64,000 nucleotides of DNA from Gammaproteobacteria bacterium. Its GTDB lineage: Bacteria; Pseudomonadota; Gammaproteobacteria; QZLD01. Location of the stretch: contig JAWSVB010000022.1 in the NCBI GenBank assembly GCA_033852135.1, positions 101,936-165,935 on the forward strand. The letters are read 5' to 3'. The position numbers and the translations under genes are program-made. Below, piece after piece: positions 1 through 31,459 of the stretch; position 1 is the stretch's first letter, and every line of letters begins with the position of its first letter. Under the pieces are notes generated by a model. The model was not told where the DNA came from. It did not search any database and saw only the letters and a list, made by a program, of their open reading frames with translations.

Positions 1-2496
1 AAAATATTAGAGCCACAAAAAATTGGAGAGAATGGGTATTTTTTTATATTTAAAAGTGATGGGTATTTGTTGCTACACCCAGTGCTTGCAGGACAAAATG
101 GGAGTAAATTAATAAATCCTGTATCAGGTAACAGTATGTTAATTGATATGAAAAATGCAGCAATGTCTAATGAAAGACTATTGAAATATATATGGGATAG
201 GCCAGATGATAAGGGCAACTATCGTTATAAGAAAAAAGCTTTCCTAGCGTATTACCAGCCACTTGATTGGTATGTGGTGACCTCAGTTTACAATGATGAT
301 ATCGATTTATTAACATCAACTTTAGTTACAAGCGCTAAGGTAATTTTCTTTATTTCAATTTTAGTATCATTAATTCTTTCGCTACTTTTAATTAGAAGCA
401 TTACTAAACCCCTTAACGATTTAGTAGGAGCAATATCTGGTACTGACAATACAGGGGTTCCTACCGTTGAAATCCCAGAGGGAAACCTGGAAGAGATTAA
501 AGTTTTAAGTCGCACTATGAACTTAATGATATCAAGGATTAAAGAATATCAAATTAACTTTATAGATAGTGAATTAAAATTTAAGAGTTTGGTTGAATCT
601 GTAACAGATTTAATTTGGGAACTAGATAAAGATGGTAACTATGTATATATAAGCCCAAGAATTTATGATTTATTAGGCTATACACCTGAAGAAGTAATTG
701 GGAATAGCCCTATGATGTTTATGGATTCAGAAGAAACCCAAGCTATTTCTCCATTTTTAGAACAGATATTTGCAGATGGAAAAGGGTTTCAGAATTTAGA
801 AAGCAAATGTTTTCATAAGGATGGGACGCCGCGTACTATTGAAGTATCAGCTGCCCCATTTTTTAATGATAAAGGTGAATTACAGGGTTTAAGGGGGGTT
901 ACCCGCGATATAACAGAAAAAATAAAAGTTGCCAGAGAGCTACATGAAAGTGAGGAAAAGTTTAAGTTGCTTGCAGATCAAATGTTGCTCGGAATTCTAA
1001 TTGTTAAAGATGGGCTGTATAAATATTATAACGATGCGGTACTGGAGATATTTGGTACAACTAAACAACAAATGGACTCATTAGGCCCTTATGATCTTCA
1101 AACCTTAATTCACCCTGATGATAGGGCGTTTGTAATGGACCAGTTAAAGAAAAAGGAAAGAGGGCATAAAGACATAGTAATTAATTACGATTGGCGCCTT
1201 ATGTCTAGTAATGGCAAGACTAAATGGGTTGAGTCCTGGTCTAAAACTATAGATTTTGATGGAGAGACAGCTGATTTTGTACTTTTGTACGATATAACCG
1301 AGAGAAAAGACGCAGAGAATGAAGTTACACATTTAAGAAACTATCTCTCCAATGTGATTAACTCAATGCCATCGATATTAGTTGGAGTTGATGTTGAGGG
1401 TAAGATTACTCAGTGGAATAAAACAGCGGTAGACCGGACTAATTTGTGTGCTGAAAAAGTTATGGGTAAACATTTAAGCCAAGTATTGCCTAACTTAAAA
1501 CCAGTGTTTAAAAAGATAGAGCAGAGTATTAAAGCAAATAAATCAGTGCAGACAAAAATATCATATCAAACCAAAGAAAGTAACAGTGTGGTACAAGAGG
1601 TAACAGTATACCCGCTAGAAGCGGATGGAGTTGAAGGAGCCGTAATTCGTATTGACGATATTTCAGAAAAAGTACGTATGCAGGAGATGATGATACAAAG
1701 TGAAAAGATGCTCTCTATTGCCGGGCTTGCTGCAGGAATGGCTCATGAGATAAATAATCCTTTGGCAGGAATGATGCAAACTGCCAGTGTTATGTCTAAC
1801 CGCCTTATAAAAAAAGTAGATATGCCAGCAAATAATGATGCTGCAGAGCACGCAGGAACTACGGTTGATGCAATAAAGCAGTTTATGGATGAGCGTGATA
1901 TCCCTCGTATGATTAACGCAATAAACGAGTCGGGAAAAAGGGCTGCGATTATTGTTAATAATATGCTTAATTTTGCTCGCAAGGATGATGGTGGAGTAAT
2001 AGCTTCGCAAATAAATGAAATAATCCGTGTTTCGATTGAGCTGGCCGAAACAGATTACAACATGAAAAAACGTTATGATTTTAAGAAGGTATCTATAGAT
2101 ACTGAGTTCGGCCAAAATCTTCCTGATCTTTACTGTGACCAAGCTCAAATCCAGCAAGTGATTTTTAATCTTTTGCGTAATAGCGCTCAAGCAATGCAAG
2201 AAGCACAAATAGAATCACCACAAGTGCGCATTCGAACTAGCTTTAATAGTGACAACAACAAAGTGTTGATTGAACTATTTGATAATGGTCCAGGTATGGC
2301 AGAGGAGGTTCGTAAAAGAGTATTCGAACCTTTCTTTACCACTAAACCTACAGGTATCGGAACAGGGCTAGGTCTAAGCGTATCGTATTACATCATCGTC
2401 GAAGAGCATGGAGGGGAGATGTATTTAGACTCCGCACCAGGTGCTGGGACTAAATTCACAATAGCTTTACCGCTTGATAGAGGGGAAAGTTCATGA
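1..2496 (+). CDS. Sensor histidine kinase, 5'-truncated at window edge (Cache-like periplasmic end, TM, HAMP, 3x PAS, HisKA, HATPase)
   Basis: Frame 1 is open from nt 1 with no stop before the listed ORF at 67 ('KILEPQKIGENGYFFIFKSDGYLLLHP' is Cache-like), so the gene starts upstream of the window. TM segment 'VIFFISILVSLILSLLLI'; H-box 'SEKMLSIAGLAAGMAHEINNPLAGM'; G1/G2 ATPase motifs 'DNGPGM...GIGTGLGLS'. Confidence 0.85.
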   Translation, partial: KILEPQKIGENGYFFIFKSDGYLLLHPVLAGQNGSKLINPVSGNSMLIDMKNAAMSNERLLKYIWDRPDDKGNYRYKKKAFLAYYQPLDWYVVTSVYNDDIDLLTSTLVTSAKVIFFISILVSLILSLLLIRSITKPLNDLVGAISGTDNTGVPTVEIPEGNLEEIKVLSRTMNLMISRIKEYQINFIDSELKFKSLVESVTDLIWELDKDGNYVYISPRIYDLLGYTPEEVIGNSPMMFMDSEETQAISPFLEQIFADGKGFQNLESKCFHKDGTPRTIEVSAAPFFNDKGELQGLRGVTRDITEKIKVARELHESEEKFKLLADQMLLGILIVKDGLYKYYNDAVLEIFGTTKQQMDSLGPYDLQTLIHPDDRAFVMDQLKKKERGHKDIVINYDWRLMSSNGKTKWVESWSKTIDFDGETADFVLLYDITERKDAENEVTHLRNYLSNVINSMPSILVGVDVEGKITQWNKTAVDRTNLCAEKVMGKHLSQVLPNLKPVFKKIEQSIKANKSVQTKISYQTKESNSVVQEVTVYPLEADGVEGAVIRIDDISEKVRMQEMMIQSEKMLSIAGLAAGMAHEINNPLAGMMQTASVMSNRLIKKVDMPANNDAAEHAGTTVDAIKQFMDERDIPRMINAINESGKRAAIIVNNMLNFARKDDGGVIASQINEIIRVSIELAETDYNMKKRYDFKKVSIDTEFGQNLPDLYCDQAQIQQVIFNLLRNSAQAMQEAQIESPQVRIRTSFNSDNNKVLIELFDNGPGMAEEVRKRVFEPFFTTKPTGIGTGLGLSVSYYIIVEEHGGEMYLDSAPGAGTKFTIALPLDRGESS

Positions 2497-2511: not shown

Positions 2512-2883
2512 ATGAATAATTCAATTTTAATTGTTGATGATGAACTTTTTATTCGGCAAAGTCTGAATGATTTTTTTAAAGATAGTCAATGGATTACATT
2601 CATAGCAAGCAGTGGAGAGGAAGCTTTAGAAATTCTTGAGCAGGAGAGCCCTTCTGCAGCAATTGTAGATATAAGAATGATGGGAATGAATGGTGATGAA
2701 TTTATTCGGCAAGCAAGAGATGTAAAACCGGAAATGTGTTTTGTGATATGTACAGGGTCACCTGAATATAAACCATCGTATGACCTTCTTCAGCTATCAC
2801 AAGTGTCAGAACAAATATATAGAAAACCGATTGATGATATGGAAAATCTGGAAAACCATATATCAAGTTTAATTAGTAATTAA
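2512..2883 (+). CDS. Single-domain response regulator (CheY-like receiver only)
   Basis: 'ILIVDDE' acidic pair, phospho-acceptor Asp in 'AIVDIRMMGMNG', 'CTGS' and 'YRKP' Lys. No output domain. Starts 16 nt after the HK1 stop. Confidence 0.85.
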   Translation: MNNSILIVDDELFIRQSLNDFFKDSQWITFIASSGEEALEILEQESPSAAIVDIRMMGMNGDEFIRQARDVKPEMCFVICTGSPEYKPSYDLLQLSQVSEQIYRKPIDDMENLENHISSLISN

Positions 2884-3002: not shown

Positions 3003-5375
3003 ATGATTTTAAGGCGTAAAGTAAATATAAGGAACTCAGTAGCAACCAGGTTGTTAAAGGTTGTGTTCTGTTTTTATATTGCATTTGCTCTTTTAGTCAC
3101 TCTTTCCCACATGTTTATTGAATATAGCTATCAGAAAGGAGATGTAAATAAATCGTTAGTTGAATTCCAGCCAACTATCGAATCAACTCTTGCAATGAAT
3201 TTATGGCATATGGATGACCAATCACTTAAATCAACAATAGATAGCATCATTAAAATCCCTTTAATAGTTGGTATTAAGATAAAAGATGAATCAAAAAATA
3301 TAATTGCAGTTGATGGAGTAGTTTCTGAAGCTGATTTTTCTGGAAAGATTGAACAAGATATTGATTTTCTAGGGTTAAAGAGCAATATAAATGACTTACA
3401 AACTAATTCATATAATCTTGAAGTTTTCCAACATACATTTCCAATTTACTATAGATATAAAGGGCAACAAAGACTATTAGGTGAAGTAACACTCTTTTCT
3501 AACTCATCGGTTATTTTTGATAGAGTAAAAGTTCAGTTCTTACTTTTGGTAATAAATTCAGTACTTAAATCGTTAGCTCTGTGGGTGTTTTTCCTACTTA
3601 TATCAAACTATATATTGCGTCGCCCATTAGAATCAATTGCGGAGGCGGCTGAAAATATCAGTGTGGAAAACCTTAGTGATTTTAAAATTAAAATAAAGTC
3701 TGCAGGAAACGATGAATTAAGCGTTATAGAAAATTCATTTAATGAAATGATAAAAAAACTCTCAGATTCTATAAATAAACAGAAGGGGGCAGAACAAAAT
3801 TTAAGAGAAAATGAGATTAAATTTAGAACGCTTGTAGAGAATGTTCCCGGAGTAACTTATCGTTGTATTAATGATGAACCTTGGACAATGATATACCTAA
3901 GTGATGAGATAGAAAACTTATCAGGCTACCAACGTTCAGATTTTATAAATAATAATAAACGTACATTTGCATCAATAATTCATATTGAGGACACCACCTT
4001 CATTTCAAAAGCAGCAGAAAAAGCTATTAAGAATAGAACAACTTATTCATTTGAATATCGCATAGTTCGTGCAAATGGTGAAATTCGCTGGGTATATGAA
4101 AAGGGACAGCCAATATTTGATGAGAACGGTGAATTACAGTTTTTTGATGGTGTTATTATCGATATTACCGAAAGAAAACAAGCTGAAAGTGAGATAAGAA
4201 AACTACGAAAGTACCTTACAAACATTATTGACTCAATGCCTTCATCCTTAGTTGGTGTAGATGAAAGTCTAAAAATAACACAATGGAATAAAACCATTGA
4301 AGATACGACAGGGATTGCCGCAGTAGATGCATATGGAAAATCAATAGAAGATATTTTACCGCAAATGCAATCTGAGTTAGGGAAAATATCATGTAGCCTG
4401 CATACCCGAACAGTACAACGTAATCAGATAAAAAGAGGGGTAGATGAGACCGGCATATGTTATGAAGACGTCACCATTTATCCCTTAATTGCAAACGGGG
4501 TTAAGGGTGCAGTTATTCGCATAGATGACATTACCGAAAAAGTAAGGATGGAAGAGATACTGATTCAGAGTGAAAAAATGCTTTCAGTTGGAGGTTTAGC
4601 CGCAGGGATGGCTCATGAGATAAACAATCCATTAGCAGGCATGGTGCAAACAGTAAATGTGATGTCAAACAGGTTGATTGAAAAATCAGATATGCCAGCC
4701 AATATAGAAGCAGCTAAAGAAGCTGGAACAACCATAGAAGCAATCAATAAATTTATGCATATTCGTGATATTCCGCGGATGATTGCTACTATAAATGAAT
4801 CTGGCAAAAGAGCATCAGCCATAGTTAACAATATGCTCAGTTTTGCTCGCAAAGGGAGCAGTGAAAAAGCAACAGTGAACTACATAGAGTTAGTTGATAA
4901 TACGATTGATTTGGCAGTGACAGATTACAACCTTAAGAGTAACTATGACTTTAAACAAGTTGACGTTATTAGAGAATATAAAGATAAAACTGTATTTATT
5001 GAATGTGAACCATCACAGATTCAGCAAGTTATATTAAATCTAATTCGAAATGCTGCTCAAGCAATGCAGGATGCCAAAATACCATCTCCAAAATTGACCG
5101 TTCGTATCAGCCACGATAAAGACACAGCAATGGTTAAAACTGAGATAGAAGATAATGGACCAGGTATAGATAAAGAGACATTAAAACGGATCTTTGAACC
5201 TTTTTATACGACAAAACCAGTAGGTGTGGGAACAGGACTAGGGTTGAGCGTTTCATATTTCATCATAGCTGATAATCATAATGGAGAGATGCATGTTGAG
5301 TCTGTATCAGGCCAAGGTACGAGATTTACAATAAGTTTGCCTGTTAACAGCATAAAACAACAAATAGGTGTATAA
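3003..5375 (+). CDS. Sensor histidine kinase (2 TM periplasmic sensor, HAMP, PAS x2, HisKA, HATPase); paralog of HK1
   Basis: TM 'VVFCFYIAFALLVTLSHMFI' and 'LALWVFFLLISNYIL'. HAMP-like 'RRPLESIAEAAENIS'. H-box 'SEKMLSVGGLAAGMAHEINNPLAGMVQT'. 'DNGPGI...GVGTGLGLS'. Confidence 0.88.
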   Translation: MILRRKVNIRNSVATRLLKVVFCFYIAFALLVTLSHMFIEYSYQKGDVNKSLVEFQPTIESTLAMNLWHMDDQSLKSTIDSIIKIPLIVGIKIKDESKNIIAVDGVVSEADFSGKIEQDIDFLGLKSNINDLQTNSYNLEVFQHTFPIYYRYKGQQRLLGEVTLFSNSSVIFDRVKVQFLLLVINSVLKSLALWVFFLLISNYILRRPLESIAEAAENISVENLSDFKIKIKSAGNDELSVIENSFNEMIKKLSDSINKQKGAEQNLRENEIKFRTLVENVPGVTYRCINDEPWTMIYLSDEIENLSGYQRSDFINNNKRTFASIIHIEDTTFISKAAEKAIKNRTTYSFEYRIVRANGEIRWVYEKGQPIFDENGELQFFDGVIIDITERKQAESEIRKLRKYLTNIIDSMPSSLVGVDESLKITQWNKTIEDTTGIAAVDAYGKSIEDILPQMQSELGKISCSLHTRTVQRNQIKRGVDETGICYEDVTIYPLIANGVKGAVIRIDDITEKVRMEEILIQSEKMLSVGGLAAGMAHEINNPLAGMVQTVNVMSNRLIEKSDMPANIEAAKEAGTTIEAINKFMHIRDIPRMIATINESGKRASAIVNNMLSFARKGSSEKATVNYIELVDNTIDLAVTDYNLKSNYDFKQVDVIREYKDKTVFIECEPSQIQQVILNLIRNAAQAMQDAKIPSPKLTVRISHDKDTAMVKTEIEDNGPGIDKETLKRIFEPFYTTKPVGVGTGLGLSVSYFIIADNHNGEMHVESVSGQGTRFTISLPVNSIKQQIGV

Positions 5376-5408
5376 CATAAATAATGAGCATATATCTTTA
5401 AATATTCT

Positions 5409-5426
5409 ACAGTTATAACTGTAGGC
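5409..5426. promoter_or_regulatory. Perfect 18-bp palindrome CTACAGTTATAACTGTAG (candidate operator, or weak terminator without a T-run)
   Basis: Seen directly, 34 nt after the HK2 stop and about 135 nt upstream of the MEDS-like gene. Confidence 0.5.
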
Positions 5427-5563
5427 CTATTTGAGTTTTTAGTGTTGATGAATGGACAGGCACTAATGAAAGATTAACCGTTTAACTGTTGGTTAGTCGC
5501 TAGAGATACTGTGTATTTAATAGCAGCTGGTATGTGAACAGTTGCTATGTGGGAGGAGAGATT

Positions 5564-6184
5564 ATGAATGATAATCATCAAAAAATCTCACTGGGTTTTG
5601 TGAAAGAAAAAGTAGATGTAGGAACTCATCTATGTCTTGTATTTACCGATAAAAAGGAAAGAGTTGATTCTTTGTTAAAATTTATTTTAGCAGGGATGGC
5701 AGATAATGAGCGCACAGCATGTTTTTCTGAAGTTATAACTGAAGCAGAGATAACAGAGTTTTTTAAACTAAATAATATCTCCTACGATGAACGTAAATCC
5801 AAGCAAGCAATAACCTTTGGTCGTACTAGTGATGTCTATTTTCAAGACAATACTTTTGACCCAGAAAGAATGCTTGGAATCTTAGAACAATTCTATACAG
5901 ATGCGATAGAAATGGGGTTTAGCGCCTCAAGAGTAATTGGAGAGATGTCTCCGAAGATACAAGATGTCACTGGCGGTGAGAGATTGCTGGAATACGAATC
6001 AAGAGTTACTAAATTACTTGAAAAGAGCCCGATAACAGCTGTTTGCCAATATGATGCAAATCAATTTGATGGAGCGACGATTATGGATGTATTGAAAGTG
6101 CACCCAAAGATGATTGTTAATGGCGTAGTTGTTGAAAATCCATTTTTTATAAAACCCGATGAATTTCTTGAAAATATCAAGTAA
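5564..6184 (+). CDS. Small cytoplasmic sensory-domain protein, possibly MEDS family (DcmR-like)
   Basis: ATG at 5564 follows a strong RBS GGGAGGAGAG (the listed ORF starts at 5534 with no RBS). About 206 aa, no TM. The motifs 'HLCLVF' and 'AVCQYD' recall MEDS domains as I remember them. The protein sits directly upstream of the soluble kinase HK3. The family assignment is from memory and not verified. Confidence 0.4.
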   Translation: MNDNHQKISLGFVKEKVDVGTHLCLVFTDKKERVDSLLKFILAGMADNERTACFSEVITEAEITEFFKLNNISYDERKSKQAITFGRTSDVYFQDNTFDPERMLGILEQFYTDAIEMGFSASRVIGEMSPKIQDVTGGERLLEYESRVTKLLEKSPITAVCQYDANQFDGATIMDVLKVHPKMIVNGVVVENPFFIKPDEFLENIK

Positions 6185-6200
6185 AAGGCATAGTTAGCAT

Positions 6201-7898
6201 ATGAGCTTTGAGGATGGTCTTTCAGCTAAAGTAATTGGGCAGATTGCAATGATGCAAGGTGTTGTAGCACAGCTGCCAGATGAGGTTTCTGTACTTGGTT
6301 TTGTTGCTAAAGGGTTATCCGATATTCCAGGTGTGAAAAAGGTAGATTATGTCTTATTCAATGATGAAGAAACATCAGTATTAGAATATGAAACAGAAGA
6401 ACTAAGGCACATATTTCCAATTGAATATAAGCAATCAAAATACTCATCATTAATATTTCACCTATCTGATAGATCTAAATTTGACCTGTATGCCCCTTAT
6501 ATCGGTAATTTTACCAATGTACTAGCAGTACTGTTTGAGGAGAGGCGTCAGCGCAAATCTAATGAGGCATTGTTAGAAAATCTTGAAGAGTTGGTGGATG
6601 AAAGAACAAAAGAGTTAAAACAAGAGATTGCTGAACGTAAAAATGCAGAGGCTGAGTTAGAGAGAACAAAAGACTACATATCAAATGTAATCGACTCTAT
6701 GCCATCTGCTCTAATATCAGTAAATGAAAACCTTGAAGTAACGCAATGGAATTTAAAAGCGGAGGAGATTACAGGGGTGCCAGCCCCAGATGCTTTTGGG
6801 ATGAAGCTGGATGATGTTTTTCCGCGCATGGGAAAAGAGCTGGAATTAATATCAAACAGTATACAAAACAAAGAGATAAAATTTGAGCAGAAAACAGCAT
6901 ACGAAGCAGAATCAGGTGTAGGTTATGAAGATATAACAATTTACCCTTTAGTAGCGATTGGGATTCAAGGTGCTGTTTTACGTATAGATGATGTCACCAG
7001 TAAAGTGCGTATGGAAGAGATGCTGGTACAAAGTGAGAAGATGCTCTCAATCGGAGGGCTTGCCGCAGGAATGGCGCATGAAATTAACAATCCATTAGCT
7101 GGGATGATGCAAACAGCAAATGTAATGCAAAATCGTTTAGTCGATAATGTTGATATTCCAGCAAATAGAAGAGCGGCAGAGGAGATTGGTGTGGATCTTG
7201 AAGCGATTGTTGGCTTTATGTCGGCTAGAGGAATTCCGCGCATGATACACGCGATAAAAGAGTCTGGTGTAAGGGTAGCTTCAATAGTCAATAATATGCT
7301 GCATTTTGCACAACAATCAGATGATGAAATTAATACAAGTAAAATTGCAGATATAATCGAGAACACTATTGGTTTAGTTTCTACAGATTACAATCTAAAG
7401 AAACAGTACGATTTTAAAAAAATTAATATTATTCGGGAGTTTCAAGAAGATCTACCTGAAATTGAGTGCCACTCATCCAAAATTCAACAGGCCATGTTGA
7501 ATCTATTTAGCAATAGTGCACATGCACTGCAACAAGCTAAAATTGAAAATCCAAAAATAATAATAAGATTAGCGATAGATGAGAAGCAAGATGATAAAGA
7601 TGCAATGGTACGGGTTGAGATTGAAGATAATGGCCCAGGTATTTCCAGTAAGTTAATAGGTAGATTATTCGAACCATTTTATACAACAAAACCTACAGGT
7701 GAGGGAAAAGGGTTAGGTTTAAGTGTTGCATATTTCATAATTACTGAAACTCATAAAGGAAAGATGTGGGTAGAGTCTAATGAGGGGGTAGGCACTAAAT
7801 TCATAATATGTTTGCCAGTAAAGCAAAATGGTAGCGATATAAGTATCGATAGAAATGTAGATAAAAATTCTATAAATTCAATGGATAACAAAGGTTAA
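6201..7898 (+). CDS. Soluble (no TM) histidine kinase: N-terminal domain, coiled coil, PAS, HisKA, HATPase; paralog of HK1/2/4
   Basis: Coiled coil 'LEELVDERTKELKQEIAERKNAEAELERTKDY'. H-box 'SEKMLSIGGLAAGMAHEINNPLAGMMQT'. 'DNGPGIS...GEGKGLGLS'. Confidence 0.88.
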   Translation: MSFEDGLSAKVIGQIAMMQGVVAQLPDEVSVLGFVAKGLSDIPGVKKVDYVLFNDEETSVLEYETEELRHIFPIEYKQSKYSSLIFHLSDRSKFDLYAPYIGNFTNVLAVLFEERRQRKSNEALLENLEELVDERTKELKQEIAERKNAEAELERTKDYISNVIDSMPSALISVNENLEVTQWNLKAEEITGVPAPDAFGMKLDDVFPRMGKELELISNSIQNKEIKFEQKTAYEAESGVGYEDITIYPLVAIGIQGAVLRIDDVTSKVRMEEMLVQSEKMLSIGGLAAGMAHEINNPLAGMMQTANVMQNRLVDNVDIPANRRAAEEIGVDLEAIVGFMSARGIPRMIHAIKESGVRVASIVNNMLHFAQQSDDEINTSKIADIIENTIGLVSTDYNLKKQYDFKKINIIREFQEDLPEIECHSSKIQQAMLNLFSNSAHALQQAKIENPKIIIRLAIDEKQDDKDAMVRVEIEDNGPGISSKLIGRLFEPFYTTKPTGEGKGLGLSVAYFIITETHKGKMWVESNEGVGTKFIICLPVKQNGSDISIDRNVDKNSINSMDNKG

Positions 7899-7903
7899 GT
7901 TAT

Positions 7904-9058
7904 ATGATTAAACTATTTAAAATAATAGCTGTTTTATCATTGTTAGCATTAATCGTAATACTGAATATGCAATCTGCATCTACTGTAAAGATTGGATTAG
8001 TTGCAGATTTAAGTAGTAGAAAAGCCAACCTTGGTGATTCTGTAAGAAATGGGCTGATTCTCGCGATAAATGAGATAAATCAACAAGGCGGTATAAATGG
8101 TCACAAGGTTGAATTATTAGTTCGAGATGGTAAATCTAACGAAGCTATTACCCAGCAACAAGCAACTAATTTAGTTGATAACTGTGTAAATCTAATAGTT
8201 GGACCTGTGCACAGTGCAATGGCAAATTCAGTAATAGAAGCGACTAAAGAAGCAGGTATATTGGTTATAAGTCCAACAGTTTCAACTGATAACCTCTCCG
8301 AAATTGATGATAACTTTTTCCGCATAAATACCAAATCATCCATTCAAGGTAATGACCTTGCAAGAGCATCAAAACTTAGGGGCGATAAGAAAGTATTATT
8401 GGTAGTGGACCAAGATAATAGTGAGTATACCGGGTCAGTAGCTCATGGTTTTAGAGAGAGAGCAAAACTACTGGATTTAGAAGTCATCGGTGAAATAGCT
8501 TTTACTAAGGAGCACGATACTACTAAATTGGTAGATAAAATCATCCAATACAAGGCTGATGCATTAGTCTTTATAACTAATGGCAAAGATGCAGCAAAAA
8601 TTATCCAGCTATATAACAAAGTTAGCAAACTACCAAACTTATATGGTGATATGTGGGCGAAGTGGAGCAATGTTAAAGAGTTTGGAGGTAAAGCTGTAAA
8701 TGGGATGGTTTTAGTTGGCATTAATAAGAATAAACAGAGCCAAGATAAAGAGGTGCAATTTGCCTCATCCTATAAACAGCTTTTTGGTTCAGAGTATACG
8801 ATACCAGCGGTTTATGCGTATGAGGCTGTACAATTATATGCTTTAGGTGCACAAAATGCCTCTAGCTTGGATAGCGATAAAATTAAACAATATATTTTGA
8901 AAATAGAGCAAATAGATGGAGTGGTGGATAACTATAAACTTGATATGTATGGTGATGCAATTCGAGAGTTTTCATATTTCCAAATTAAAGATAATAGATA
9001 TGAAAAGATAAATTTACCCAAAGAGTTACCTATAAAAATAGATAGTGTTAAAGAGTAG
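7904..9058 (+). CDS. Periplasmic binding protein, LivK/Leu-Ile-Val-binding family (Peripla_BP_6-like), signal peptide
   Basis: Signal peptide 'MIKLFKIIAVLSLLALIVILN'. 'VKIGLVADLSSRK...GINGHKVELLVRDGKSN' is typical of type I PBPs. No ABC permease or ATPase genes nearby. Confidence 0.75.
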   Translation: MIKLFKIIAVLSLLALIVILNMQSASTVKIGLVADLSSRKANLGDSVRNGLILAINEINQQGGINGHKVELLVRDGKSNEAITQQQATNLVDNCVNLIVGPVHSAMANSVIEATKEAGILVISPTVSTDNLSEIDDNFFRINTKSSIQGNDLARASKLRGDKKVLLVVDQDNSEYTGSVAHGFRERAKLLDLEVIGEIAFTKEHDTTKLVDKIIQYKADALVFITNGKDAAKIIQLYNKVSKLPNLYGDMWAKWSNVKEFGGKAVNGMVLVGINKNKQSQDKEVQFASSYKQLFGSEYTIPAVYAYEAVQLYALGAQNASSLDSDKIKQYILKIEQIDGVVDNYKLDMYGDAIREFSYFQIKDNRYEKINLPKELPIKIDSVKE

Positions 9059-10222
9059 ATGGTTAAAAATATGAATAATTATAAAACAGGAACAAAAAGA
9101 TTAATCAGAGCTGGAGCAATAATTGTTTTGCTAGCATTGGTTACTTGGCTATTACTATCCCTACTAATTTTAAAAGAGCCGGTAAAAATAGGTTTTTTAG
9201 CAGATTTAAGTACCAGAAAATCGCAGCTAGGTGTTGTGGCAAGAAACGGTGTGATTATGGCCGTAGATGAATTAAATGACAGAGGTGGAATAAACGGTAG
9301 AAAAGTTGAGCTTATTATTAGAGATATAAAATCAAGTAAAGATGAGGCAAAGCTTCAAACGTTAAAATTAATTGAAGATGGGGTAGATGTGATAATCGGA
9401 GGGTTTGTTAGCTCAATGGCCGCTCCTGTTCTTGAAGCTACAAAGAATAGTAATATCTTGCTAATAAGTCCTACAGTTGCAGCTGATAGTTTGTCAGGAA
9501 TTGATGATAATTTTATTCGGATTACCCCACAAGCATCAAAACATGGTAGTTCGCTTGCTGAGGCAGCTGGGTATATGGGAATTAAAAAAGTTACTTTGAT
9601 TCGCGATATCAAAAATGAAGAGTACTCAGGGGCTGTAGTTGATGGGTTTAAGAAAAAATGTGAAGAACAATCTATTCAAGTTATTGGTGATCTAGAGTTT
9701 GAAACCAAGCAAGACTTCCCTCAACTTGTTGAGCAATTGTCTAAGCTGCAGTCAGATGCTTTGGTATTTATCACCAGTGGAATCGATGCCGGTGCGATTA
9801 TTCAGCAATATGCTAGAAATAATAATGTTCCACATCTATTTGGCAGCATGTGGACAAAAGTTACAAAAGTAAATGAGTATGGTGGAAAAGCAGTAAATGG
9901 AATGTTTCTGGTAGATGTTTTTGCGAATAAAAATCCAGAAGTTAAAGAAGTAGAGTTTAATAAATCTTTCAAAGAGCGTTTTGGAATGGGATCAAATATG
10001 CCATCAAGGTATACATATGAATCTGTAAAGCTATTTGCTCAAGCTGCTGAGAAAGCAAATAGTGTAAAAACTGAAAAAGTAAAAACTGAAATTATTAATA
10101 TGAACCCTGTTGAGGGGATAACAGATAACTATCAGATTGATAAATATGGTGATGTTATTCGTGAACTATCCCTTTATCAGATTAAAAATCACCAGTACGA
10201 GTTGACTAATAAAACGAACTAA
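9059..10222 (+). CDS. Second LivK-type periplasmic binding protein (tandem paralog), N-terminal membrane anchor or signal
   Basis: 'VKIGFLADLSTRKSQLGVVARNGVIMAVDELNDRGGINGRKVELIIRDIKSS' is parallel to the upstream PBP. Hydrophobic N-terminus 'AIIVLLALVTWLLLSLLIL'. Confidence 0.75.
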   Translation: MVKNMNNYKTGTKRLIRAGAIIVLLALVTWLLLSLLILKEPVKIGFLADLSTRKSQLGVVARNGVIMAVDELNDRGGINGRKVELIIRDIKSSKDEAKLQTLKLIEDGVDVIIGGFVSSMAAPVLEATKNSNILLISPTVAADSLSGIDDNFIRITPQASKHGSSLAEAAGYMGIKKVTLIRDIKNEEYSGAVVDGFKKKCEEQSIQVIGDLEFETKQDFPQLVEQLSKLQSDALVFITSGIDAGAIIQQYARNNNVPHLFGSMWTKVTKVNEYGGKAVNGMFLVDVFANKNPEVKEVEFNKSFKERFGMGSNMPSRYTYESVKLFAQAAEKANSVKTEKVKTEIINMNPVEGITDNYQIDKYGDVIRELSLYQIKNHQYELTNKTN

Positions 10223-10342
10223 TACAAATAGCTAATTAATAAAAAGTGCAATAAATAGGATATATGTAAATGCAGAAAAAAATCAGTAAAGAAATGAACC
10301 AACAATACAAAAAGGTTGCGTTTAAATAGCAGGTTTTATGTA

Positions 10343-12601
10343 ATGGTTAATTTCTTTCATAACATAAGCATTCAAAGGTTTTTCAAGATTTATCTCTTGA
10401 TTGCTGTGTTATTACCGTTATTGGTTCTTGGCTTGGTAGGATTGACAATATCATCAAGCTTATTAAGGCATGAGATATTAAACGCAGATCATAGGCAGGT
10501 ACACCTTGCTGAATATGCTATCGAGCAGCACCTCCAAAGACCACTTGAGGATCTTCAGGTTATATCAAGCCTAATTCATAATATTTCAAAATCACAGCCA
10601 TCAAGAATCCAGAGAATTATCGAAAAAACTCAAGATGCGCATAGATATTTTGCAGCTATTCAAGTTGTTGATATTGATGGTCGAGTAATTGCTATATCCC
10701 CATTAAATAAAGATTTGATGGGTATTGATGTATCAGGACACAGATACTTCAATAAAATTAAAAGTTTAAATACTCCGTATTGGGGGGCATCATTTATATC
10801 GGAGCAGTTAGAGTTACCACTCGCATCACTAAGTATAAAAACAGATTATGGCTTTATTATCACAGGTTTTCTCAGATTAGATGATATTAGTGAAATCGGT
10901 AAAGGTAGGAGACAAGAAGAAACTAGTAATAATGATATTGATTCACGATTGTTGTTTATCACAGACCAGAATGGGGTATTTATTGCACACCCAGACAAAC
11001 AAAAAGTTATGATTCGTGAATATGACCAACAATATGCAAAAAGTATTAAGCAGTGGAATAGTGATATTTTAGTTAGTGAGGCTGAATATAATGAGCGTGA
11101 ATTCTTAGTAAATACGGTTATTATGCCAGAGACAAAATGGAAAATATCACTATATACTCCACTTGAAAATATCACTTCTCCAATTATAAAAACGGCAGTT
11201 ATATTACTGCTTTTAACTCTAGCAGTTACCGTATTAGCAATTATTGGCGGAGCAAAACTCAGTAGTAAAATATCTGGCTCTTTCAGTGAGTTGCTTAAGT
11301 CAGTAGATGCTATCGGCAAAGGGAAGTATGAAGTACCAATATCTCAAAGTAATTATAGAGAGTTTAACCAGCTTGCTGATTCATTTGAACAGATGGCACA
11401 AGAGGTAAAAGCAAGGGAGAAAGACCTCAAGGAAGCAGAGAGCTATATCTCCAATATTATTAATTCCATGCCATCAATATTGGTAAGTGTGAACAGAGAT
11501 CTAATAATTACGCAGTGGAACATGACTGCAAAAGATAAAACAGGGGTTGAGGCAGAAGATGCAAAAGGGAAAAATCTAGTGGAGCTTTTGCCTAATTTGC
11601 AGTCAGAAATCAGTAAAATAGAGAGCAGCATAGAAAGTCGGCAAGTTAAATATAGCAGGAAAAAGCCACTTTATTCTGAGAGCAATGTAAGCTACGAGGA
11701 TATAACAATTTTTCCACTAATAGCTAACGGAGTACAAGGAGCTGTTATTCGTGTTGATGATGTTACGGATAAAGTTCGTCTTGAAGAGATGCTGGTACAA
11801 AATGAGAAAATGTTATCCATTGGTGGGTTGGCAGCTGGTATGGCGCATGAAATCAATAATCCGCTAGCAGGGATGATGCAAACAGCAGATGTTATTCAGA
11901 ATCGTTTAGTAAATAAAATTGATTTGCCAGCAAATAAAAAAGCAGCAGAAGAAGCAGGTATTACTATTGAAGGGGTTTCTAAATTTATACATGCCAGAGA
12001 TATTCCTCGTATGATTGAAACAATAAAAGAGTCTGGTAAACGTGCGGCTACTATCGTTAATAATATGCTCACATTTGCACGTAAGGCAGACCACAGTAAA
12101 TCAAAGGTAAATGTAGAGCGTTTATTAGAAGACACATTAGATCTAGCAATAACCGATTACAATTTAGAAAAAGAGCATGATTTTAAACAGATAAAAATCA
12201 TAAAAGAGTTTGAATCTAGCTTGCCATTATTGCTATGTGAAGAAACTAAAATTCAGCAGGTGATTTTAAATTTACTGCTCAACAGTGCCCAAGCAATATT
12301 TGGCAGCAGTATAAAAGCACCTGTAATTCATATCCGTACAAGTCTGTCTAAAGATAGCAAAATTATTAATATCGAGATTGAAGATAATGGCCCGGGGATG
12401 GATAACGAAACAAGTAAAAGAATATTTGAACCGTTTTTTACAACAAAAGATGTTGGTCAAGGGACAGGTTTAGGTTTAAGTGTTTCATATTTTATTGTTA
12501 CAGAGAATCATGGTGGTGAGATGAGTGTTACATCAAAGACAGGGGAAGGCACTAAGTTTTTAATATCCCTGCCAGTAGAAGGAAACAAAAATGAATACTA
12601 G
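10343..12601 (+). CDS. Sensor histidine kinase with ~250-aa Cache-like periplasmic domain, TM, HAMP, PAS, HisKA, HATPase (paralog HK4)
   Basis: ATG at 10343 (the listed ORF uses an in-frame TTG at 10316). TM1 'IYLLIAVLLPLLVLGLVGLTI', TM2 'AVILLLLTLAVTVLAIIGG'. H-box 'NEKMLSIGGLAAGMAHEINNPLAGMMQT'. 'DNGPGM...GQGTGLGLS'. Confidence 0.85.
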   Translation: MVNFFHNISIQRFFKIYLLIAVLLPLLVLGLVGLTISSSLLRHEILNADHRQVHLAEYAIEQHLQRPLEDLQVISSLIHNISKSQPSRIQRIIEKTQDAHRYFAAIQVVDIDGRVIAISPLNKDLMGIDVSGHRYFNKIKSLNTPYWGASFISEQLELPLASLSIKTDYGFIITGFLRLDDISEIGKGRRQEETSNNDIDSRLLFITDQNGVFIAHPDKQKVMIREYDQQYAKSIKQWNSDILVSEAEYNEREFLVNTVIMPETKWKISLYTPLENITSPIIKTAVILLLLTLAVTVLAIIGGAKLSSKISGSFSELLKSVDAIGKGKYEVPISQSNYREFNQLADSFEQMAQEVKAREKDLKEAESYISNIINSMPSILVSVNRDLIITQWNMTAKDKTGVEAEDAKGKNLVELLPNLQSEISKIESSIESRQVKYSRKKPLYSESNVSYEDITIFPLIANGVQGAVIRVDDVTDKVRLEEMLVQNEKMLSIGGLAAGMAHEINNPLAGMMQTADVIQNRLVNKIDLPANKKAAEEAGITIEGVSKFIHARDIPRMIETIKESGKRAATIVNNMLTFARKADHSKSKVNVERLLEDTLDLAITDYNLEKEHDFKQIKIIKEFESSLPLLLCEETKIQQVILNLLLNSAQAIFGSSIKAPVIHIRTSLSKDSKIINIEIEDNGPGMDNETSKRIFEPFFTTKDVGQGTGLGLSVSYFIVTENHGGEMSVTSKTGEGTKFLISLPVEGNKNEY

Positions 12602-12968
12602 TAATAAAAGCGTTTTGATTTTAGATGATGAACCGTTTGTAAGGGATAGTCTTGTAGATTATTTTGAAGATTGCCTTTGGACCGTATTTTGTTCTGGGCA
12701 GGAGGATGAGGCGCTAGATATTATAAAAAACTATAAAATAGATTGTGCCATAGTGGATATTCGAATGGCAGGTATTGGTGGGGACCAATTTATTCGTGAA
12801 GCGAATAAACTGCCCAATAAAATTGGATTTGTAGTTTGTACCGGTTCTCCTGAGTATGAAATTCCAGCTGATTTAGCCGCATTAGAAAATGTTTCAAATA
12901 CTATTTTTAGTAAACCTGTGACAGAGCTAAATAAATTAGAGCAAGAATTACTGAAGTTAGCAGGATAA
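12591..12968 (+). CDS. Single-domain response regulator (receiver only), translationally coupled to HK4
   Basis: ATG overlaps the HK4 stop (ATGAATACTAG). 'VLILDDEP', 'AIVDIRMAGIGG', 'CTGS', 'FSKP'. Paralog of the receiver at 2512. Confidence 0.85.
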   Translation: MNTSNKSVLILDDEPFVRDSLVDYFEDCLWTVFCSGQEDEALDIIKNYKIDCAIVDIRMAGIGGDQFIREANKLPNKIGFVVCTGSPEYEIPADLAALENVSNTIFSKPVTELNKLEQELLKLAG

Positions 12969-13044: not shown

Positions 13045-14352
13045 ATGAGTGATACTCAAATTACAGTGCTAGCAATTGATGATGATGAATACATCAGGCA
13101 AAGTTATATCGATTGTTTGGAAGACTATGAATACAAAGTATTTATAGCTGAAAATGGCAGAGTTGGTTTAGAGCTTTTTGAACAGCACATTGATGAAATT
13201 GATATCGTAATTGTTGACCTAAGAATGCCAGAGGTTGATGGCTTTCAAGTAGTTGCACATGTGAAAAAAAGTAAGCCAGAGCTACCAATAATTGTAGTTT
13301 CCGGTAATGGAGTAATAAGTGATGCAGTTGAGGCTCTTCATCAAGGAGCGTGGGATTACTTGCTAAAACCGATAGAAGATTTTTCTGTATTGATTCACTC
13401 TGTAAATAGCTGCTTGGATAAGGCGCGTCTTATTAATGAGAATGCAGAGTATCAACTCCATCTGGAAAGTATGGTTGCAGATAGAACTAATGAATTATTT
13501 GAAGCAAATATTGAGCTGAAAAGGCATAAAAGTCACCTGCAAGAGCTGGTTGAAGAGAGAACATCAAAATTAAATGAATCATTAGAAAATCTAAATAATA
13601 CAAAAGATTATTTAATCCAATCTGAAAAAATGGCAGCCCTAGGTGGTTTGGTTGCTGGTGTTGCGCATGAGATTAATACTCCAGTTGGGATTGGTGTAAC
13701 GGCTGCCTCACACCTCGAAGGTGAGACCAGAAAGTTTACTAAAGCCTATGAAAACGGCGAACTAACCAGAAAGGCGTTAGATAGCTATGTGAAAATAGTA
13801 AATGAAAGTTGTGGAATGATTCTGTCCAATATGAATCGTGCTGCAGACTTAATCCATAGCTTCAAGCAAGTTGCAGTTGACCAATCTAGCCAAGAAAATC
13901 GTGAGTTTAATGTTAAAAAGTATTTGCATGAGATCTTTGCAAGCCTGAATCCAAAGTTTAAGAATACCAGTTTAACTATCAATGTAGAGTGCGCAGATGA
14001 CCTGACCATTAACTCCTACCCTGGGACTATGTCTCAGATTATCACCAACCTTGCCTTAAACTCCCTTATCCATGGCTTTGAAGATAAAGAAAATGGAACT
14101 ATAGATTTAAAAGTTGTGAAAGAAAATGGAAATATTAAGATAAATTATTCAGATACCGGCCACGGAATATCAGAAGAAAATTTAACTAAAATATTCGACC
14201 CATTTTTCACAACTAAGAGGGGTTATGGGGGGAGTGGACTTGGCTTACATATAGTTTTCAATTTGGTCACCCAAACCCTTGGTGGAAGTATTGAATGCAA
14301 TTCGAAAGAGGGTGAAGGGGCTGAGTTCATTATTGAATTTCCATACTCTTAG
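13045..14352 (+). CDS. Hybrid response regulator-histidine kinase (N-terminal receiver, coiled coil, HisKA of a different subfamily, HATPase)
   Basis: Receiver 'VLAIDDDEYIRQ...IVIVDLRMPEVDG...VVSGNG...LLKP'. H-box 'SEKMAALGGLVAGVAHEINTPVGIG'. 'DTGHGI...GGSGLGLHIV'. Confidence 0.85.
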   Translation: MSDTQITVLAIDDDEYIRQSYIDCLEDYEYKVFIAENGRVGLELFEQHIDEIDIVIVDLRMPEVDGFQVVAHVKKSKPELPIIVVSGNGVISDAVEALHQGAWDYLLKPIEDFSVLIHSVNSCLDKARLINENAEYQLHLESMVADRTNELFEANIELKRHKSHLQELVEERTSKLNESLENLNNTKDYLIQSEKMAALGGLVAGVAHEINTPVGIGVTAASHLEGETRKFTKAYENGELTRKALDSYVKIVNESCGMILSNMNRAADLIHSFKQVAVDQSSQENREFNVKKYLHEIFASLNPKFKNTSLTINVECADDLTINSYPGTMSQIITNLALNSLIHGFEDKENGTIDLKVVKENGNIKINYSDTGHGISEENLTKIFDPFFTTKRGYGGSGLGLHIVFNLVTQTLGGSIECNSKEGEGAEFIIEFPYS

Positions 14353-24111: not shown

Positions 24112-25278
24112 CTAAGCTTTTGCAACCTGTTCACGCTTATTTTTGTTCAGCATGACGGCATTAAAATGCTCTACCCATTTATCAGAAAACTGAGTGCCTG
24201 AACATGCATTTATCTCAGATATACCTCTGATATATGTACGCTTGTGATCTCGGTCAGATCTATTATTTGTCATGGAGTAAAAAGCATCAACAATAGCCAT
24301 TATCTTGGCTCCATCAGAGATGCTAGCGCTTTTTAGTCCCTCTGGATAACCTTTCCCATCTGGTCTTTCATGGTGTTGTTGCACTATGGTGCCAGTATCA
24401 TTCCAATTTATTAACCTTTTAGTGATAGATGCACCCTGCGATGTATGGCGGTTGATTAGATTAACTTCATCTTTGCTTAGTTTGCCCTTTTTAAACATTA
24501 CATGGTTGGGTATAAATGCCATGCCGATATCATGCAAGCAAACAGCAGCTGTTAGTTTACTTGGGTCTAGTGGATTTCCGGCAGATTCATTTATGCTAAG
24601 TGCAAGCTCGATTAACTGCTGCGTTCTACCTTCCCAAGCGGGATTCTTTTTATCAATTTTGGCTGCAAGCATCCGGAAAAATTTTAAATCATCCCGCATC
24701 CCTTGGGTTAACGAAACATCATTTGCTTCAATAGATTCTTGGTTTTTATTCCTCTTAGGTTTGATATCTTTTTCAGGTTCTGGTGCAGTAGTTGTTTCAG
24801 CTGGTACAGGGTTAAATCTACCAGTGATAAGGGTGATAAGTTTTTCAGCTTCATCAGTATATTCAGCATCTTTTGCTTTTGAAATCTTAGTTAATAGAGT
24901 TTGAATCTCTTCACGTTGAAATTCAGCAATAGACTTGTGATTAATTACTGCATAGATAACCTCTTTTAAACGATCAAGAGAGATTAGTACTACATCGCAT
25001 AAAGTATCATTGAATTGGATTTTTTTGGTTTTGATCGAGTAAATTACATCTTCAATTGCTTGGCTTAAAGATACAATTGGGTCAAGTTCACATACAGTAG
25101 CATTGGATTTGACTGAATGAATAGCTCGGAAACAGTCATCAATAAGAAACTGGTCATCAGGTTGACTAATTAGAGTTGATAAGTTTGTTTCGATAGTTGC
25201 ATAACTTTCAGAAAAGTTATCAAGCAGGTCCTGAATTAATTCTTCTTCAACATTGTGGATATAGATTTCTTCAGACAT
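24112..25278 (-). CDS. HPt-like domain fused to HD-GYP c-di-GMP phosphodiesterase
   Basis: C-terminus: 'HDIGMAFIP...HHERPDGKGYPEGL' (HD and GYP motifs). N-terminus: 'CFRAIHSVKSNATVCELDPIVSLSQAIEDV' resembles the CheA-P1/HPt consensus 'FRAAHSIKGGAGTFG'. Pro/Thr/Glu-rich linker between them. Confidence 0.7.
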   Translation of the reverse strand: MSEEIYIHNVEEELIQDLLDNFSESYATIETNLSTLISQPDDQFLIDDCFRAIHSVKSNATVCELDPIVSLSQAIEDVIYSIKTKKIQFNDTLCDVVLISLDRLKEVIYAVINHKSIAEFQREEIQTLLTKISKAKDAEYTDEAEKLITLITGRFNPVPAETTTAPEPEKDIKPKRNKNQESIEANDVSLTQGMRDDLKFFRMLAAKIDKKNPAWEGRTQQLIELALSINESAGNPLDPSKLTAAVCLHDIGMAFIPNHVMFKKGKLSKDEVNLINRHTSQGASITKRLINWNDTGTIVQQHHERPDGKGYPEGLKSASISDGAKIMAIVDAFYSMTNNRSDRDHKRTYIRGISEINACSGTQFSDKWVEHFNAVMLNKNKREQVAKA

Positions 25279-25427: not shown

Positions 25428-26294
25428 CTATGGAGATATCTTCTCTTTAGATATTATCCCTTCAAGCCACTGTATTGCTTCATTAACAGTTTGAACCCTG
25501 GTACGAGGGTCAGGTCTGAGCATTTGGGCAATTAGTTGTGATAGTTGAGACCCTACAAGCGGGGATATGAACTGGTCCGGGAGAGAGCAAACATTTTTTG
25601 CATTGAGGATTTGTTCAGCAGTTGAAGAGCCGGTATTCCACTTTTTTCCTGTAACAAGCTCATAAAAAATAACTCCAACTTGAAATATATCGCTTTGTTC
25701 CAGCCATTGTTCTCCTTGGGCTTGCTCAGGACTCAGATACTCAGTAGAACATTGGGCTGTAGTATGCATTACTTTATGTTTTTTAAAGAAAGCAGAAGCA
25801 AAATCCACAAGGTAAACATGTCCTTTTTTACCGAGAATAATATTTTCTGGAGTGATATTGCCATGAATTACAGGCTCTTTGCATAGGTGGAGGTATTTGA
25901 GTGCTCCGAGTATTTGCGATACAACGCCAACTGCAAAGCGAGGGTTCTTATAAATCTGTGCTGGCTTTTCAGCGCACAGCGCTTTTAGCGACATACCTTT
26001 AACGTAATTATATGCAATATAATGGATGTCATTGACTTTGCCGTGCTCAGTATATTTAGGAAACTGTTTGCCTTTGAGAAGGTTTAAGATTTTTCCTTCA
26101 AGTTGGAATTGCTTAATTGCTTTTTCATTTGTAGAAAGTTTTGAATCTAAAAATTTAATATAAAGTGGTGCCTTATCCTTTTTTTCAGCCACGCCAATAG
26201 CGGCTCTATAAAAAGAATCTTTTTTAAGTGGTCTGAGAAAATAGTTTCCTGTACGAAAAGGAAACGGAGTTGCACTACCTTGTTGTGTGTTCAT
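25428..26294 (-). CDS. Protein-kinase-like protein (Ser/Thr kinase fold) with substituted catalytic loop; probable pseudokinase
   Basis: Kinase landmarks are present: 'YIKFLD' (VAIK Lys), 'EGKIL' (alpha-C Glu), 'YLSPE' (APE). The HRD catalytic loop reads 'HGNITPEN' (no Asp) and DFG reads 'DFA'. Confidence 0.6.
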   Translation of the reverse strand: MNTQQGSATPFPFRTGNYFLRPLKKDSFYRAAIGVAEKKDKAPLYIKFLDSKLSTNEKAIKQFQLEGKILNLLKGKQFPKYTEHGKVNDIHYIAYNYVKGMSLKALCAEKPAQIYKNPRFAVGVVSQILGALKYLHLCKEPVIHGNITPENIILGKKGHVYLVDFASAFFKKHKVMHTTAQCSTEYLSPEQAQGEQWLEQSDIFQVGVIFYELVTGKKWNTGSSTAEQILNAKNVCSLPDQFISPLVGSQLSQLIAQMLRPDPRTRVQTVNEAIQWLEGIISKEKISP

Positions 26295-31240: not shown

Positions 31241-31459
31241 ATCGGTCCAGGTTGAAGGCAGTAATAGGCGCCAATCATCTCATTTTTAGGAATTAAATCC
31301 AATTAAGCCCTATAAATAGTTCTTAATAACTAAAAAAACAGGACTCAGGTAACATTACAGCAAAAGATTTACAGTAATTAATGGTAACTAAACTATTATT
31401 TTAGTAATTAGTATAAATGTAATTTATCTATTGATGGTTGGTAGTTGTCGGAATGTTTA

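Follow-up and report, generated by a model that had tools for sequence, protein, structure and literature searches.

Tandem Peripla_BP_6 proteins as candidate co-sensors of an adjacent Cache-type histidine kinase in a gammaproteobacterium

The PBP1-PBP2-HK4 locus

The DNA analysed here is a 64-kb stretch of a gammaproteobacterial genome (assembly GCA_033852135.1, contig JAWSVB010000022.1, positions 101,936 to 165,935), which is termed the window and has a G+C content of ~36%. The leftmost 14 kb of the window form a single co-directional signalling cluster on the + strand, in which two tandem genes for periplasmic binding proteins (PBPs), termed PBP1 and PBP2, precede the gene of a histidine kinase (HK), termed HK4, that possesses a periplasmic loop. 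A first-pass annotation, made from the sequence only, had placed the two PBP genes between the kinases HK3 and HK4 and had proposed that they encode sensory proteins for HK4 instead of uptake proteins. Their position between the two kinases is confirmed (Table 1), and their proposed role is the subject of the present analysis.

Both proteins match the Pfam family Peripla_BP_6 (PF13458; gathering score 31.7), with 163.7 bits (E 1e-47) for PBP1 and 173.4 bits (E 1e-50) for PBP2, and they are paralogs that share 47% identity over 343 residues. The prediction of two tandem type I binding proteins is thus borne out, and the core motifs on which it was built are present in both, reading VKIGLVADLSSRK...GINGHKVEL in PBP1 and VKIGFLADLSTRK...GINGRKVEL in PBP2. 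Sequence search against solved structures gave branched-chain amino acid binding proteins as the best matches (E 1e-24 to 1e-18), the top match of PBP1 being 4gnr (E 1.8e-24). The AlphaFold2 model of PBP2, with a mean predicted local distance difference test score (pLDDT) of 95.7, has the two-lobed α/β type I fold and superposes on solved family members. Structural comparison using Foldseek gave TM-scores of 0.80-0.89 against 4n0q, 3td9 and 3ip5, with a root-mean-square deviation of 2.3-2.6 Å, and TM-scores of 0.74-0.89 against the Leu-bound structures 4n0q, 3td9 and 4q6b.

Hydropathy analysis revealed a single N-terminal hydrophobic segment in each protein, at residues 2-20 of PBP1 and residues 20-38 of PBP2. 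PBP1 has a possible signal-peptidase site (NMQSAS/TVKIG) and may be cleaved after NMQSAS. In the PBP2 model, a confident helix spans residues 9-35 and the first β-strand starts at residue 42; the junction between them (LLILKEPVKIG) has ~6 residues, with neither a Cys nor a small-residue cleavage site, so the helix is probably an uncleaved membrane anchor. The export signal that had been assigned to both proteins stands as one hydrophobic segment each, without a small-residue cleavage site in PBP2. A hydrophobic N-terminus is found in 117 of 120 homologs, about half of which carry a lipobox-like Cys. The Cys-free homologs include the PBPs of the window and their gammaproteobacterial relatives, and in the inspected examples the first strand begins just a few residues after the hydrophobic stretch. 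The family would thus sit at the membrane on a short leash, which fits the partner of a membrane sensor.

The label "LivK-type" given to the two proteins holds at the superfamily level only. They score 78.6 and 80.7 bits against the NCBIfam LivJ/LivK model (NF011933), for which the cut-off is 477, and 37.6-65.6 bits against the UrtA models TIGR03407 and TIGR03669, for which the cut-offs are about 493. An identity as LivJ/LivK or UrtA was rejected on these scores, which lie far under the curated cut-offs. The pockets were compared by alignment to a LivJ sequence verified to be identical to that of 1z15, in which we take Ser79, Thr102, Tyr202 and Glu226 to be the contacts for the α-amino and α-carboxylate groups of the ligand. 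The equivalents of Ser79 and Tyr150 are kept in both PBPs, and the Ala100 position is a Thr. The Thr102 position is Ser in PBP1 (Ser127) and Ala in PBP2, the Tyr202 position is Asn or Ser, and the Glu226 position is Met in both, so the LivJ-type set of contact residues is not conserved. Altogether, the PBPs share with Escherichia coli LivJ/LivK the Pfam family, the fold, the Ser79 and Tyr150 equivalents and, in PBP1, the hydroxyl of Thr102; they differ from them in an identity of ~18% by structural alignment, in an N-terminus that looks like a tether, and in the lack of livHMGF-type gene neighbours within the window. The ligand class deduced earlier from the family (an amino acid, amide or urea-like compound) is not established, with model scores far below the cut-offs and the LivJ contacts replaced. 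A carboxylate-bearing small molecule is a plausible ligand by inference.

The open reading frame (ORF) of HK4 opens at a TTG at 10316; the ATG at 10343 is the likelier start, because it is preceded by an AGG and agrees with the N-terminus of the ortholog at locus L001 (L numbers denote the loci compared below). Counted from this ATG, two membrane segments at residues 16-34 and 285-303 enclose a periplasmic loop of 250 residues, in agreement with the ~250-residue domain annotated before. The loop (about residues 35-284, nucleotides 10445-11194) scores 41.9 bits against dCache_1 (PF02743), which is below the gathering score (45); a database protein identical to HK4 (P0128) carries a PF02743 record. 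Partner proteins at related loci have dCache_1 domains that score 54-77 bits, and their N-terminal loops match the HK4 loop by phmmer. By homology, the loop may be assigned to dCache_1, and it would provide an extracytoplasmic domain on which a PBP could dock. Pfam scan found no LuxQ-periplasm match in HK4. A word-indexed homolog search with a 266-residue periplasmic fragment of HK4 returned no match, even to the identical database protein, which points to an apparent gap in the sensitivity of this search for the fragment; a metagenome scan seeded with a dCache alignment returned no relatives.

PBP2 and HK4 lie in the same reading frame, and the spacer between them holds four stop codons, which rule out a read-through fusion of the two. 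No terminator-like site was predicted within this spacer, and the promoter and terminator scans were uninformative, with fewer promoter-like sites than in shuffled sequence. Downstream, the response regulator (RR) gene RR2 is conserved 3' of the HK4 ortholog in L001, L002, L012 and L170, and its product is the probable phospho-acceptor of HK4.

The window was searched for ATP-binding cassette (ABC) transporter genes at three levels, and none was found, as had been noted at first. A motif scan of all frames of the window detected neither an LSGGQ-type ABC signature nor a Walker A site of the ABC type; the only two Walker A matches lie in a MiaA-type isopentenyl pyrophosphate transferase and in an unrelated ORF. 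When 34 putative permeases and ATPases of the Liv type, drawn from transporter-type loci, were used as phmmer queries, no window ORF of at least 60 residues was matched at E<=0.01. Pfam scans assigned the other large ORFs at 18028-52474 to signalling, efflux, recombination and housekeeping functions, with no ABC transporter among them; ORFs past 52474 were covered by the motif scan and phmmer.

Conserved pairing and exchanged outputs

Relatives of the PBPs were gathered from a protein database together with their genomic context, from a scan of one genome per species seeded by an alignment of 12 closer sequences, and from metagenome contigs. The loci were annotated using the window's own domains as queries, and non-redundant loci were tallied. 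Close relatives were defined by phmmer E<1e-28, and a locus was counted only when downstream DNA was available. A partner was called a dCache protein when its N-terminal loop matched the HK4 loop or the loop of another partner. Among the close relatives, the next gene on the same strand encodes a dCache signalling protein with two to three membrane segments in 57 of 62 non-redundant loci, a count made up of 54 loci from the automatic tally and three (L021, L092 and L093) added after inspection of ORF-calling artefacts. Among the weaker relatives, such a partner comes next in 2 of 73 loci. Many of these weaker relatives are followed by proteins with six to nine membrane segments and/or ABC ATPase motifs, which is the Liv-type pattern, and some have neither. 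An adjacent Liv-type permease or ATPase was found in none of the 62 loci of the close clade, except possibly in L031, which sits at the clade boundary. The sensor-linked PBPs group together in a neighbour-joining tree, separate from the few transporter-type ones included.

The junctions between the PBP and sensor genes mostly measure -4 to +9 nucleotides, lengths compatible with translational coupling. According to the record titles, the pair is found in Gammaproteobacteria, Spirochaetaceae (including Spirochaeta isovalerica), Desulfovibrio and other Deltaproteobacteria, Rhodocyclaceae and other Betaproteobacteria, Clostridium, Desulfosporosinus, Campylobacterales and Fibrobacterales. Lookups made in the reverse direction, from HK4 orthologs, found PBPs upstream in two of three cases. 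The adjacency of PBP and sensor is thus conserved across taxa without a transporter, the arrangement by which a binding-protein-dependent sensor is recognized.

The window is not alone in carrying two PBP genes. In Spirochaeta isovalerica and another spirochaete, two tandem PBP genes lie directly upstream of the kinase gene. Second PBP copies from two such tandem loci, L006 and L013, were included in the neighbour-joining tree and branch apart from PBP1 of the window, which suggests that the PBP gene was duplicated more than once. Overall, tandem pairs upstream of a dCache kinase were seen at L006, L013, L089, L169 and L171, in spirochaetes and related metagenome contigs.

The partners of the PBPs vary at their output ends. 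Pfam scan of ten partners (E<=0.001) revealed that nine begin with dCache_1; the tenth, at L030, has no dCache_1 at this threshold and was matched by the dCache queries in phmmer. Their outputs comprise HisKA-HATPase, hybrid kinases with REC or Hpt, GGDEF-EAL and GGDEF-HD-GYP. Over 55 non-redundant pairs, the distances among the PBPs correlate with those among the N-terminal 310 residues of the partners (the dCache region) with r=0.93, and with those among the partner C-termini with r=0.59. This pattern suggests that PBP and dCache domain moved as a unit and that the outputs attached to them were swapped.

Some of these outputs, and the genes around related clusters, concern cyclic di-GMP (c-di-GMP). 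The gammaproteobacterial clusters at L001, L002 and L170 have as their first gene a REC-DUF3369-HD-GYP regulator, the architecture of the RpfY family of c-di-GMP phosphodiesterase regulators (bioRxiv 10.1101/2021.11.05.467447). In three metagenome loci, L122 (3734-6001), L127 (3609-5828) and L161 (3766-5994), a REC-DUF3369-GGDEF-EAL gene lies just upstream of a PBP gene, the product of which is about 25-31% identical to PBP2. Because REC-DUF3369 c-di-GMP genes occur in related clusters and some partners end in GGDEF-EAL or HD-GYP, c-di-GMP turnover is by analogy the likely downstream currency; the REC-DUF3369-HD-GYP gene itself was seen in the orthologous clusters, outside this window. The REC-DUF3369-GGDEF-EAL genes of the three metagenome loci parallel the REC-DUF3369-HD-GYP genes that head the gammaproteobacterial clusters.

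Within the clade, some pocket positions are conserved and others vary. Conservation reaches at least 80% at the positions equivalent to Ser79, Tyr150 and Ala100 (a Thr in these proteins); at the Thr102 position, 27 of 30 members have Ser or Thr. Eight residues are near-invariant and clade-specific, namely R62, P138, T139, D149, D150, N186, Q249 and W265 (PBP2 numbering); they may line either the pocket or the docking face. PBP1 and PBP2 differ at 7 of 12 pocket-equivalent positions, and the same positions vary between subclades. Since these pocket positions differ, the two paralogs probably read different molecules.

Proposed mechanism and its alternatives

Taken together, the conserved gene order, the tight or overlapping junctions in relatives and the co-divergence with the dCache region support the earlier suggestion that the PBPs are sensory proteins for HK4 and do not serve uptake. 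We propose, with a probability of roughly 70%, that PBP1 and PBP2 are membrane-tethered, ligand-loaded co-sensors that dock on the dCache_1 domain of HK4, and that they are not parts of a transporter. The hydrophobic segments at their N-termini would anchor both proteins to the inner membrane on its periplasmic side, and they would feed no transporter. Once loaded with a small molecule, they would dock on the 250-residue dCache_1 domain and shift the balance between the kinase and phosphatase activities of HK4, which would signal to the receiver-only RR2. From there, by analogy with the orthologous clusters, the signal would probably pass on to a REC-DUF3369-HD-GYP regulator that degrades c-di-GMP. 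With their differing pockets, the two paralogs would probably give one kinase two ligand specificities. We infer the docking, its ligand dependence, the tethering, the route of phosphotransfer and the c-di-GMP output.

Several observations weigh against this proposal. Locus L170 (GCA_033852075.1), a gammaproteobacterial locus with the same overall cluster, encodes an HK4 ortholog (51% identity) that has dCache_1 and no neighbouring PBP gene, its HK2 and HK4 ortholog being 107 nucleotides apart (5893-6001); here the kinase senses directly or its PBP has been lost or relocated. Conversely, L003 (10001-11113) and L090 (6001-7059) contain clade PBPs without an adjacent sensor. In the window itself, the gap between PBP2 and HK4 is ~120 nucleotides, not an overlap. 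Shared descent alone can make adjacent genes co-diverge, so the correlation is supportive and not proof of contact. A Liv-type transporter may also be encoded elsewhere in the genome, our view being that of the 64-kb window, and the known co-sensors ChvE, CBP, BctC and GltB also serve transporters (PMC8050422). Because the L170 kinase occurs without a PBP and the L003 and L090 PBPs occur without a sensor, the partnership between PBP and dCache protein is frequent and tight, but not obligatory. The PBPs of L003 and L090 are 40-43% identical to PBP2, and no Liv-type transporter adjoins them either; in L003, a gene of the HSP70 family lies downstream on the opposite strand.

The view of 64 kb and the known dual-role co-sensors would also suit a different reading, in which the PBPs are orphan substrate-binding proteins whose Liv-type ABC importer is encoded at another place in the genome, and in which they adjoin HK4 by chance or act in both transport and signalling. 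We consider this unlikely. In its favour, LivJ/LivK share the Pfam family of the PBPs, and the best fits of the PBP2 model are Leu-bound transport proteins; against it, the PBP scores lie far below the LivJ/LivK cut-off, and the window has no ABC genes. Adjacent Liv-type genes, which many distant relatives have, are missing from the clade loci with the one possible exception at the boundary. The tether inferred for these proteins is a further point against transport, as one would not usually expect an uncleaved membrane anchor on a proteobacterial binding protein for transport.

Alternatively, the PBPs might be ligand-independent accessory subunits, constitutively bound to HK4 and tuning or stabilising it, with the dCache domain binding the signal. 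LuxP remains bound to LuxQ with and without ligand, and the L170 kinase exists without a neighbouring PBP gene, both of which agree with such a role. However, conserved pocket positions alongside variable ones are what one would expect if the pockets work and differ in specificity, and at the place of what we take to be the canonical R-x-W-Y motif of dCache_1, HK4 and its close orthologs read H-x-Y-F. We therefore regard an accessory role as improbable, even though dCache_1 domains usually bind ligands directly, through their membrane-distal module (PMC8050422). It is most improbable that the PBPs serve another receptor, either HK2, which also has a periplasmic domain and belongs to the same cluster of four kinases, or a chemoreceptor encoded elsewhere, with HK4 as no more than a neighbour in the operon, since unrelated genomes without HK1, HK2 and HK3 still have a PBP followed directly by a dCache_1 protein; a pairing of the PBPs with HK2 was rejected on this synteny evidence.

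Beyond the window, the co-sensor proposal can be extended to a more speculative one, which we put forward tentatively and at less than even odds. A tethered Peripla_BP_6 protein and a dCache_1 domain may constitute a portable two-protein periplasmic sensor, which was attached in many lineages to a kinase, hybrid kinase, GGDEF-EAL or HD-GYP output and often ends in c-di-GMP turnover. In such a sensor, the dCache domain would have lost its direct binding of ligand and would act as a docking platform, and tandem paralogs, as in the window and in spirochaetes, would let one transducer read two chemicals.

Known systems and the surrounding cluster

According to a 2021 review, binding proteins that stimulate sensor kinases are typically encoded beside signalling genes (PMC8050422). 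The sensor-kinase examples listed there, including LuxP/LuxQ, TorT/TorS, XylFII/LytS, HptA/HptS and ChvE/VirA, use other binding-protein families, and the sole Peripla_BP_6 example of signalling in its table is BasB/BasT of Halobacterium salinarum (PMC8050422). BasB/BasT, a binding-protein-dependent chemoreceptor for branched-chain and sulfur amino acids, is the closest studied precedent. As in the window, its Peripla_BP_6 gene lies just upstream of the gene of a membrane receptor whose extracellular domain is dCache-like, beside signalling and not transporter genes, and mutants of either gene have similar phenotypes (PMC8050422). Compared by description, it differs from the window in being archaeal, in its methyl-accepting chemotaxis transducer output, and in having a single binding protein.

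The autoinducer-2 sensor LuxP/LuxQ of Vibrio also resembles the window, with a type I binding protein that adjoins a double-Cache-type kinase, controls its activity and has no transporter. However, LuxP belongs to Peripla_BP_4, the LuxQ sensor belongs to the Pfam family LuxQ-periplasm, and LuxQ is a hybrid kinase feeding LuxU. Membership of the window proteins in the LuxP/LuxQ family proper was rejected, because Peripla_BP_4 is sub-threshold in PBP1 (28.4 vs 35.1 bits) and absent in PBP2, and HK4 lacks LuxQ-periplasm. In a Spirochaetaceae locus, L004, genes for a Peripla_BP_4 protein, a LuxQ-periplasm histidine kinase and a REC-HisKA_2 protein (3157-6560) lie directly upstream of a Peripla_BP_6/dCache_1 pair. 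By their domains, the two would be binding-protein-dependent sensors side by side, showing one design built from two protein families. TorT/TorS, XylFII/LytS and HptA/HptS likewise use a dedicated periplasmic or extracellular binding protein, encoded with the kinase, to present the ligand to the sensor domain (PMC8050422). Their binding proteins belong to other families (Peripla_BP_1, Peripla_BP_4 and SBP_bac_11), the sensors of TorS and LytS are four-helix bundles, and none of the three systems has two tandem paralogous binding proteins.

Full-text searches, with most subscription journals outside their coverage, returned no paper that pairs a Peripla_BP_6 protein with a histidine kinase or a c-di-GMP enzyme. 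The principle is established; the combination of families, its breadth, the swappable outputs and the tandem paralogs are apparently undescribed. Binding-protein-dependent receptors are thought to be common, and few have been studied; the large Peripla_BP_6 family is absent from the sensor-kinase examples of the 2021 review. The clade is sharply bounded, so that sequence similarity alone predicts whether a PBP has a sensor or a transporter as its partner, and it could correct many annotations as "ABC transporter substrate-binding protein". It also bears on the role of dCache domains that do not bind ligands themselves, and the link to REC-DUF3369 c-di-GMP enzymes suggests that the module controls whether cells attach to surfaces or move. 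Spirochaeta isovalerica, as a named species, offers a tractable test system.

Table 1. Features of the signalling cluster at the left end of the window (positions in the window)
Feature	Position	Strand	Description
HK1	1-2496	+	truncated by the window start (frame open to base 1); Cache tail, PAS domains, kinase core
RR1	2512-2883	+	receiver domain only
HK2	3003-5375	+	two membrane segments, HAMP, PAS, kinase core; ~140-residue periplasmic loop
MEDS-domain protein	5534-6184	+	Pfam E 7e-38
HK3	6201-7898	+	soluble, no membrane segment; no recognisable sensor domain except one PAS
PBP1	7904-9058	+	384 residues, Peripla_BP_6
PBP2	9059-10222	+	387 residues, Peripla_BP_6; start codon immediately after the PBP1 stop codon
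PBP2-HK4 spacer	10223-10342	+	AT-rich
HK4	10343-12601	+	first membrane segment, putative dCache_1, second membrane segment, HAMP, PAS, HisKA, HATPase
RR2	12591-12968	+	receiver-only response regulator (Pfam Response_reg); start overlaps the HK4 stop by 11 nucleotides
Receiver-HisKA-HATPase hybrid	13045-14352	+	domains by Pfam; closes the cluster

The cluster as a whole (Table 1) is bordered on its 3' side by the housekeeping genes yafS, rnhA and dnaQ. The PAS-HisKA-HATPase cores of HK1-HK4 share 51-58% mutual identity, the helix with the phospho-acceptor histidine is near-identical across all four kinases, and RR1 and RR2 are 45% identical. The four kinases look like paralogs that have different input modules and address the same regulators. 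By synteny, the terminal receiver-kinase hybrid is retained with the cluster in L001, L002 and L170, and a PBP1 ortholog occupies the same cluster position in L001.

The cluster resembles a kinase network in which many inputs feed one output, and its composition differs among related genomes, with zero, one or two PBPs and with the MEDS and HK3 genes present or absent. The MEDS protein, encoded directly upstream of HK3, looks like the sensor half of a second split sensor-plus-kinase pair in the cluster; this pair is kept in L001 and absent from L002, L012 and L170. Elsewhere, the window is unusually rich in c-di-GMP and two-component genes. A gene on the - strand (24112-25278) encodes a 388-residue protein with an N-terminal Hpt domain and HD-GYP (HD_5), which is an uncommon fusion; it adjoins the gene of a 288-residue Ser/Thr protein kinase (25428-26294, - strand), and an HD-GYP protein is encoded nearby (27708-28703). 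Further signalling genes encode a REC-GGDEF-EAL protein (31445-33292), a hybrid kinase of 1177 residues with the architecture HAMP-PAS-PAS-HisKA-HATPase-REC (42975-46508), and a GAF-GGDEF protein (46586-48253).

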